From a virus: DNA of 64,000 bases. Position 1 is the first letter of the stretch; every line of letters starts with the position of its first letter. Of this stretch, positions 65 through 3,238 are shown one piece after another. The stretch lies in the IMG/VR virus record IMGVR_UViG_3300027963_000039; one strand, given 5' to 3'. Position numbers and translations under genes: made by a program. The notes under the pieces are model-generated. The model did not search any database and was not told the DNA's origin. It was given only the letters and a program-made list of their open reading frames with translations.

Positions 65-140
65 GCACCTATCGTCTAACGGTTAGGACGGCGCCCTTTC
101 AAGGCGTAAACGGCGGGTTCGATTCCCCCTAGGTGTACCA
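65..140 (+). tRNA. tRNA-Glu(TTC)
   Basis: Acceptor GCACCTA/TAGGTGT, anticodon loop CT-TTC-AA, GTTCGATT T-loop, encoded CCA. Confidence 0.92.
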
Positions 141-355
141 TATTAAAACGCATTGGGTTACCAAGCCAGTAGGTACCTTAGCAGAGAATTATTCCTAGTG
201 ACGGCTAGGCTCTGCTAAGACTACATGAAGCCTCCCGAGGGTGCTGGAACAACTTGGCAAGTAATGTGTGCGATAGACAAGTCCGTGGACGGCACGGTAG
301 GGCAGGTTCAAAACTGTTATTTCTATCAAACATCCTAATGTGTTTTAATATGGTA
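136..355 (+). ncRNA. Unassigned highly structured RNA (element A) in tRNA array
   Basis: ~22-bp closing stem (TACCATATTAAAACGCATTGGG / CCTAATGTGTTTTAATATGGTA) enclosing nested stems such as CTTAGCAGAG/CTCTGCTAAG, CCTAG/CTAGG, CCAAG/CTTGG, GATAGA/TCTATC and CCGTG/CACGG. Confidence 0.6.
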
Positions 356-479
356 TTAGATTAGTTGACGTAAGCCATGGGTAATCGTAACACCTGAGTA
401 ACTGCGTACATAAACGGTAAGGTGGCCACTAATTCCGTTGAGCGTAGCAAATAGTGCGTCAACTAATCTAATACCATAT
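348..479 (+). ncRNA. Unassigned structured RNA (element B) in tRNA array
   Basis: Perfect 23-bp inverted repeat 348-370 / 457-479 enclosing internal stems (AACGG/CCGTT, CTGCG/CGTAG); directly abuts tRNA-Tyr. Confidence 0.6.
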
Positions 480-2767: not shown

Positions 2768-3238
2768 ATGCGTAAATTAAATTTAGACAACGTTATTTCT
2801 TTCATTGAACAGCAATCACCTGAAACCAAAGTTTATATTGGTTGTGATTCTGAAAGATTAATGGTTGATGGAATTCCTTATGCAGATTACGTTCTTGCTA
2901 TCGTAGTACATATTAATGGAAATAATGGATGCAAAATTTTTGGTGAAGTTATTCGTGAAAGAGATTTTGACCAGAAACGAAGTAAACCTAGATATAGATT
3001 AATGAATGAAGTTTACAAAGTTTCAGAGTTGTATTTGAAACTTGCAAATGTTCTAGTTGATCGTGATATTGAAGTGCATTTGGACATTAATCCAAATGAA
3101 ATGCACGAATCGTCTTGTGTCATTAATGAAGCTGTTGGATATATAAAAGGAACGTGCAATGTTATTCCTTTAGTTAAACCCGAAGCCTTTGCTGCTACGT
3201 ATGCAGCAGACAGATTTAAGACACTAAAAGCAGCATAA
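2768..3238 (+). CDS. RNase H-like YkuK/DUF458-family protein
   Basis: VYIGCDS, RLMNEV, IEVHLDIN and AAD motifs; embedded in tRNA array. Confidence 0.75.
   Translation: MRKLNLDNVISFIEQQSPETKVYIGCDSERLMVDGIPYADYVLAIVVHINGNNGCKIFGEVIRERDFDQKRSKPRYRLMNEVYKVSELYLKLANVLVDRDIEVHLDINPNEMHESSCVINEAVGYIKGTCNVIPLVKPEAFAATYAADRFKTLKAA

Follow-up and report, generated by a model that had tools for sequence, protein, structure and literature searches.

The window analysed here, a stretch of 64,000 nucleotides from IMG/VR virus record IMGVR_UViG_3300027963_000039, opens with an array of 21 tRNAs within its first 6 kb. It comes from a phage whose T4-type DNA polymerase (gp43 family) is about 50% identical to cyanomyovirus gp43. 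Behind tRNA-Glu lies element A (136-355, + strand), a segment of about 220 bases, followed by a second structured RNA, element B, which ends 1 nt before tRNA-Tyr (480-572). The features of both elements are listed in the table. A sequence-only reading had described element A as a non-coding, structured segment set in a tRNA operon, itself neither a tRNA nor a tmRNA. This description holds: no reading frame is conserved, the fold covaries, the flanking tRNAs are called by ARAGORN, and the same program calls no tRNA or tmRNA between tRNA-Glu and tRNA-Tyr and nothing inside element A. Window 136-355 on the + strand is a genuine structured RNA.

Table. Features of element A and its neighbours (positions in the window)
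Feature	Position	Strand	Evidence or remarks
tRNA-Glu(UUC)	65-140	+	ARAGORN; Rfam tRNA 55.1 bits
P1, 5' arm (22-bp closing stem)	136-157	+	inverted repeat, MFE fold, covariation helix 1
P2, 5' strand	161-165	+	pairs with 253-257; covariation helices 2 and 3
P2b, 5' strand	166-170	+	pairs with 243-247; covariation helices 2 and 3
P3, long hairpin	173-224	+	pairs 173-175/222-224, 177-186/210-219, 194-198/205-209; covariation helices 4-6
Junction AUGAA	225-229	+	
P4	230-232/240-242	+	7-nt loop; covariation helix 7
P2b and P2, 3' strands	243-247 and 253-257, within 243-265	+	A-rich bulge between them
Domain 2	266-333	+	covariation helices 8-11
P5	266-268/331-333	+	
P6	272-277/322-327	+	
P7	283-287/293-297	+	loop GACGG
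P8	303-305/314-316	+	loop GUUCAAAA
P1, 3' arm	334-355	+	inverted repeat, covariation helix 1
Element B	348-479	+	second structured RNA, perfect 23-bp closing stem, z = -6.2; separate from A

Element A is enclosed by an inverted repeat of 22 nt (91% complementary) that forms the closing stem P1. Read from the sequence, two positions of this stem are non-Watson-Crick, each a G-U pair on the + strand, in agreement with the earlier description of a stem of about 22 bp with mismatches of the G-U type only. The stem extends into its neighbours on both sides. The last five bases of tRNA-Glu, UACCA (136-140), are the first five bases of P1, an overlap with the ACCA end that had already been noticed, and the final 8 nt of the 3' arm (348-355) double as part of the 5' arm of element B. 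Segment 134-358 folds with a minimum free energy (MFE) of -82.9 kcal/mol (z = -5.5), and none of 200 shuffled sequences folded equally well. All helices named in the sequence-only reading (CCAAG/CTTGG, CCAG(T)/(G)CTGG, CTTAGCAGAG/CTCTGCTAAG, CCTAG/CTAGG, GATAGA/TCTATC and CCGTG/CACGG) are present in the MFE structure and are backed by covariation (helices 2, 3, 5, 6, 9 and 10). Four helices were added to that list: GTA/TAC, GCC/GGT, GTG/CAT and CAG/CTG. The closing stem itself (helix 1) is 97.6% paired and shows compensatory change in 17 of its 22 pairs.

The architecture comprises eleven helices and three three-way junctions. Junction 1 is closed by P1 and bears P2 and P5; junction 2, reached via P2-P2b, bears the long P3 hairpin and the variable P4; junction 3, reached via P5-P6, bears P7 and P8. 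Within the P2/P2b helices, the column pair 32/131 occurs as CG (33), UA (28) and GC (6), and in P3 all 15 pairs of helices 5-6 covary, with an extra pair at columns 68/73. The apical loop of P3 (199-204) carries GACG, which is GCCG in most relatives, and G(A/C)CG is displayed in both the P3 and the P7 loops. P4 varies most among the arms of the family: it can be as short as 3 bp or carry an insert of about 45 nt. Unpaired motifs that are invariant include GGUUAC, AGUAGGU, AUGAA and GUAAUGUG, and the 243-265 junction contains an invariant GUAAU. A mutual-information scan gave no signal of pseudoknots; the pairs it returned were nested or lengthened existing helices slightly, apart from one covarying non-canonical pair that closes the loop of P4. 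An alternative UUAC/GUAA pairing that would extend P2 is compatible with 65 of 68 sequences, both of its sides being nearly invariant. Two proposals for the loops were rejected: the P4 loop as a mimic of an Arg anticodon (N-Y-CCG-A-N, with ACG in two relatives), because other clades swap in a long GAAA-loop hairpin or a 45-nt insert, and the GACG loops as partners or mimics of the tRNA-Glu D-arm, because GACG is kept in phages with a different tRNA-Glu D-stem.

Relatives of element A were sought in IMG/VR by pattern scans for the stem ends, the core motifs and the window-type domain 2, and by one metagenome scan for further loci. A covariance model (R1), built from the six closest relatives of the window, divided true from chance matches, with true matches scoring 70-274 bits on the + strand. 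At least 83 distinct full-core relatives were recovered from lake phage contigs (68 in alignment A6 and 15 in alignment A7, both fitted to the covariance model). They are overwhelmingly of lake metagenome origin, and core length is about 175-200 nt across the family. Covariation among homologues, on which the sequence-only reading had staked its proposal, is strong: across the 68 sequences of A6, pairing holds in 96.8% of cells and compensatory changes occur in 54 of 70 pairs, values that none of 500 shuffles reached, while slid partners pair at 31-39%. An independent MAFFT/RNAalifold run gave 16 covarying pairs, and the top mutual-information column pairs are the predicted pairs. The 15 distinct relatives in A7 (97.2% paired, 31 of 67 pairs compensatory) share the two-domain fold, the GATAGA stem, the C(C/T)GTG hairpin and the GTTCAAAA loop, and seven of them stand first in a tRNA operon. 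That P6 and P8 are invariant in this alignment is partly a selection artefact, because the scan pattern fixed parts of domain 2. A divergent form (class 2; 55-62 bits) keeps domain 1 and the 22-bp stem and has a different domain 2. Outside these sources, the core pattern had 0 matches in 185,579 bacterial and archaeal species genomes, and blastn of 136-480 against GenBank phages returned chance matches of 20-36 nt only; no cultured carrier is known. Both the fold and the distribution are solid.

The signal is specific to one strand, with R1 scores of 106-274 bits on the + strand and 24-36 bits on the reverse strand. Wobble pairs are frequent in the 68-sequence alignment, where one U-G pair is invariant. 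A search for coding potential found no conserved reading frame, and conserved blocks fall in differing frames across homologues. Stop-free stretches on the minus strand (median 61 codons) were considered as coding and set aside, since their frame is not conserved. Comparison with Rfam, which the sequence-only reading had proposed as a check, gave no family, in line with that reading, which had recognised none. When 5 kb was searched against Rfam 15, no match fell inside 136-355 at E<=1, and at E<=10 over 130-485 a single 15-bit snoRNA match straddled the boundary between A and B, which is ascribed to chance. The class-2 relative likewise gave only noise against Rfam. Judged by these comparisons, element A is a member of an undescribed family of predicted phage non-coding RNAs.

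The family occurs in three genomic contexts: behind a tRNA, at the head of a tRNA operon, or as a stand-alone copy. Contexts were assigned for all 68 distinct sequences of A6; for A7, 14 of the 15 distinct sequences are among those listed. In most A6 copies (58) the start lies within tRNA-Glu(UUC), 4 nt short of its end. The remainder lie 11 nt after a CCA-less tRNA-Glu (1), after tRNA-Ser (1), after tRNA-Gln (1) or stand alone (4), or have a flank that is cut or N-masked (3). The A7 copies lie after tRNA-Glu (2), between tRNA-Ile and tRNA-Glu (1), first in a tRNA operon directly before tRNA-Glu (6) or before tRNA-Asp (1), or stand alone (5). Taken together, 60 copies overlap the CCA end of tRNA-Glu, 1 lies behind this tRNA with 11 nt in between, and 7 directly precede it. 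On the downstream side, the 5' end of the next tRNA overlaps the end of P1 in 13 A6 copies, where P1 takes in its first 3-4 nt; in 8 more it starts 4-9 nt past the end of P1, and in two more 55-57 nt. Because the next tRNA overlaps or lies within 9 nt of P1 in 21 copies, the RNA would be bounded by tRNA processing sites. The 9 stand-alone copies have no tRNA within the scanned flank (130 or 400 nt). One is preceded by a predicted sigma-70 promoter (11/12) ending 9 nt before the RNA. Another stands in the second half of an ORF-free region of about 880 nt (L065:4775-5652), where a promoter-like site precedes it by about 275 nt and a terminator follows about 90 nt behind it, and this copy may belong to a longer transcript. 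The earlier description of an element wedged between tRNAs therefore fits the embedded copies and fails as a general rule, as the core is also found first in a tRNA operon or standing alone with its own predicted promoter.

The length of P1 follows these contexts. In copies located behind a tRNA the median is 22 of 22 pairs, and in first-in-operon copies 20-21 of 22 are formed, while stand-alone copies have only 3-10 contiguous P1 pairs, so that the long stem is restricted to tRNA-embedded copies. The outer 12 bp of P1 are invariant in most copies. In the copy that follows a CCA-less tRNA-Glu (L058), P1 still includes UACCA although the tRNA ends 11 nt upstream.

Each of three carrier genomes of 164-177 kb (98-100% complete) contains one copy of element A, and copies are always oriented in the direction of tRNA transcription. 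The nearest phage record (G001) has a DNA polymerase 100% identical to that of the window and a different tRNA order; behind its tRNA-Glu it carries a class-2 variant of A (L001:1703-1973), with a different interior between similar ends. Because this record differs here despite its identical polymerase, near-identical phages appear to trade the tRNA/ncRNA array as cassettes.

On balance, we lean towards a core that is a stable RNA in its own right, probably acting in trans, with the long stem serving as a clamp for excision or insulation within the tRNA precursor. That the core is kept without tRNAs and without the long stem suggests that it has a function of its own; the long stem is then the context-specific part, apparently an adaptation to a polycistronic tRNA precursor. 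According to this model, element A would be transcribed within the tRNA precursor directly behind tRNA-Glu, and the 22-bp clamp would pair the UACCA end of the tRNA and its trailer with the sequence just 5' of the next gene. The clamp would isolate the fold of the RNA, set its ends at tRNA processing sites and mark it for excision by an RNase III-type nuclease, by the tRNA-trimming enzymes at work on either side, or by both. Helix length is the sole feature that points to the RNase III type: substrates of this enzyme have an uninterrupted helix of about two turns (at least 20 bp), and P1 offers two turns in its 22 bp. Clamp-like closure recurs in the neighbouring cassettes: element B and two further types also have closing stems of about 20 bp. 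Once released, the end-protected RNA would act in trans, most likely through a protein or RNA partner. The interpretation first offered from the sequence, a phage ncRNA co-transcribed with tRNAs and released by RNase III or tRNA processing, is right in outline and partly supported. Two features fit this model less readily. The invariant outer 12 bp of P1 suggest sequence-specific recognition, which lies outside the clamp model, and a generic trans-acting RNA would have no reason to sit next to tRNA-Glu almost constantly, before or behind it, a placement that could indicate a cis role specific to tRNA-Glu.

That adjacency would be accounted for if the RNA were functionally tied to tRNA-Glu, which it would bind, hold or chemically act on, at its CCA end or elsewhere; the association is kept in the independent orders Glu-RNA, RNA-Glu and Ile-RNA-Glu. 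Such an RNA could gate the maturation or charging of tRNA-Glu, or could be a ribozyme acting on it, and we regard a tie of this kind as unlikely. An equally improbable alternative confines the function to the precursor, with element A as a cis-acting maturation device that sequesters the CCA end of tRNA-Glu and has no function after release. Maturation of the tRNA-Glu 3' end and of the 5' end of the next tRNA would then depend on a double-strand nuclease or on regulated unfolding. The inclusion of UACCA in P1, the capture of the first nucleotides of the next tRNA in 13 copies and the preference of most tRNA-embedded copies for tRNA-Glu are what such a device would lead one to expect. Yet a plain hairpin would suffice for this purpose, whereas an interior of about 175 nt with invariant junctions is conserved, and stand-alone copies retain the core without a nearby tRNA or a long P1. 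The CCA-less tRNA-Glu of L058, whose P1 includes UACCA all the same, and the copies behind tRNA-Ser, tRNA-Gln and tRNA-Ile also argue against it.

A catalytic role was also weighed. Element A could be a catalytic RNA, self-cleaving or other, of a new class that acts at or near tRNA 3' ends, in the manner of theta ribozymes. In size, in its three junctions and in its many invariant unpaired nucleotides it resembles a typical ribozyme, and in most copies its 5' boundary is a tRNA 3' end, a position that it shares with the theta ribozymes. These are small HDV-like ribozymes, mainly of gut phages, for which processing of phage tRNA 3' trailers has been proposed (PMC10879173). However, no known ribozyme family matches at E<=10, HDV-like models included, in line with the earlier remark that no HDV core could be seen; the nested double-pseudoknot core of HDV-like ribozymes (about 60 nt) is absent from a fold in which covariation gives three three-way junctions and no pseudoknot signal. 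Theta-linked tRNAs, moreover, mostly lack an encoded CCA (only 4.5% encode it; PMC10879173); the CCA at issue here is encoded and lies in a helix. Element A also differs from theta ribozymes in its length of about 220 nt and in occurring away from tRNAs, and the sequence at the tRNA junction is unconserved in stand-alone and first-in-operon copies. We therefore hold a ribozyme of this kind to be decidedly unlikely. Least credible of all, and very improbable, is a DNA-level element, such as a miniature inverted-repeat mobile element or a recombination cassette, in which selection acts on the terminal repeats rather than on an RNA fold. The 22-bp terminal inverted repeats and the different interior between similar ends in G001, which resembles cassette exchange, would suit such an element. 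Against it stand the compensatory changes throughout the internal helices, the strand-specific G-U pairs and the far lower scores of the reverse strand. Complete genomes carry one copy each, always in the tRNA direction, target-site duplications were not found, and the bacterial and archaeal species genomes yielded no core-pattern copies.

That phage tRNA clusters carry extra stable RNAs was recognised as early as the 1970s. The closest analogues of element A, T4 RNAC and RNAD (species 1 and 2 RNAs), are likewise non-coding and encoded among the clustered tRNAs of a T4-type phage, immediately behind a tRNA: tRNA-Arg is followed 1 nt later by rnaD and then by rnaC. What they do biologically is unknown (PMC3014915). 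Their lengths are 119 and 139 nt, compared with about 220 nt for element A, and they lack a 22-bp clamp that includes a tRNA CCA end. With filters off, R1 scored at most 8.6 bits in the T4 tRNA region, at a site elsewhere, with nothing meaningful at rnaC or rnaD. By this comparison, T4 RNAC and RNAD are not recognisable homologues of element A. The element A family is a better handle on the role of such RNAs than the T4 RNAs, being larger, far more conserved and represented by at least 83 distinct members. Its fold is already solved by covariation, the RNA lends itself to structure determination, partner pull-downs and self-cleavage assays, and its three natural contexts separate the putative functional core from the putative processing clamp. 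As a setting for tRNA 3' maturation, a CCA end buried in such a clamp is unusual too.

Y RNAs of the YrlA type combine a long stem, formed from the 5' and 3' ends, with a compact module. Element A resembles them in that the module in the window's clade includes the T-loop-like GUUCAAAA, but this sequence is missing from most of the family and there is no Rfam match. No TROVE/Ro gene (PF05731) turned up in five carrier records, of which three are 98-100% complete, while control genomes gave matches; a Ro/Y-RNA system is thus unlikely. GOLLD and ROOL RNAs are carried by phages and prophages, often beside tRNA genes, and measure roughly 0.6-0.8 kb. These large, intricate bacterial RNAs of unknown function, for which homo-oligomers have been shown (PMC12286853), have Rfam models, none of which matches element A. 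A survey of IMG/VR predicted 8,495 unnamed candidate structured RNA motifs (PMC10690425), among which the element A family may sit; the main text of that survey describes no motif fused to tRNA-Glu.

Element B follows A at about a third of loci. Its cores (16 distinct) align at 85% identity, with invariant GUAAG and UAGUGC. Short words shared with T4 rnaC and rnaD (GCGTCAACTA, CGTAAGCC and CCTGAGTAA) raised the possibility that B is their homologue, which was rejected because a model of the 16 B cores finds neither. In four relatives (L004:1362-1520, L014:1941-2090, L127 and L129), the slot after A is filled by at least two other RNA cassettes with long closing stems, one type closed by TTTGTTTAGTGTTATC...GATAACACTAAACAAA and the other by ATATCAAAGCAC...GTGTTTTGATAT.

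Several further features of the array were recorded. The tRNA-Tyr(GUA) behind element B is unusually long, at 93 nt with the anticodon at position 38 (ARAGORN), and is classified best by Rfam as tRNA-Sec with just 30.7 bits; the same 93-nt form recurs in four relatives (L006, L010, L014 and L022). Two protein genes lie inside the array (1710-2363 and 2768-3238), one with a glutamine-amidotransferase/BPL_N-like domain and the other RNase H-like (PF04308, phrog_11311). In the gap after tRNA-Met, positions 1260-1315 weakly matched the Rfam model of Dictyostelium Class I RNA, below threshold (31.5 bits, E 0.0045) and probably by chance, and the gap 1254-1448 holds a duplicated 40-nt motif (1333-1372 and 1391-1430).
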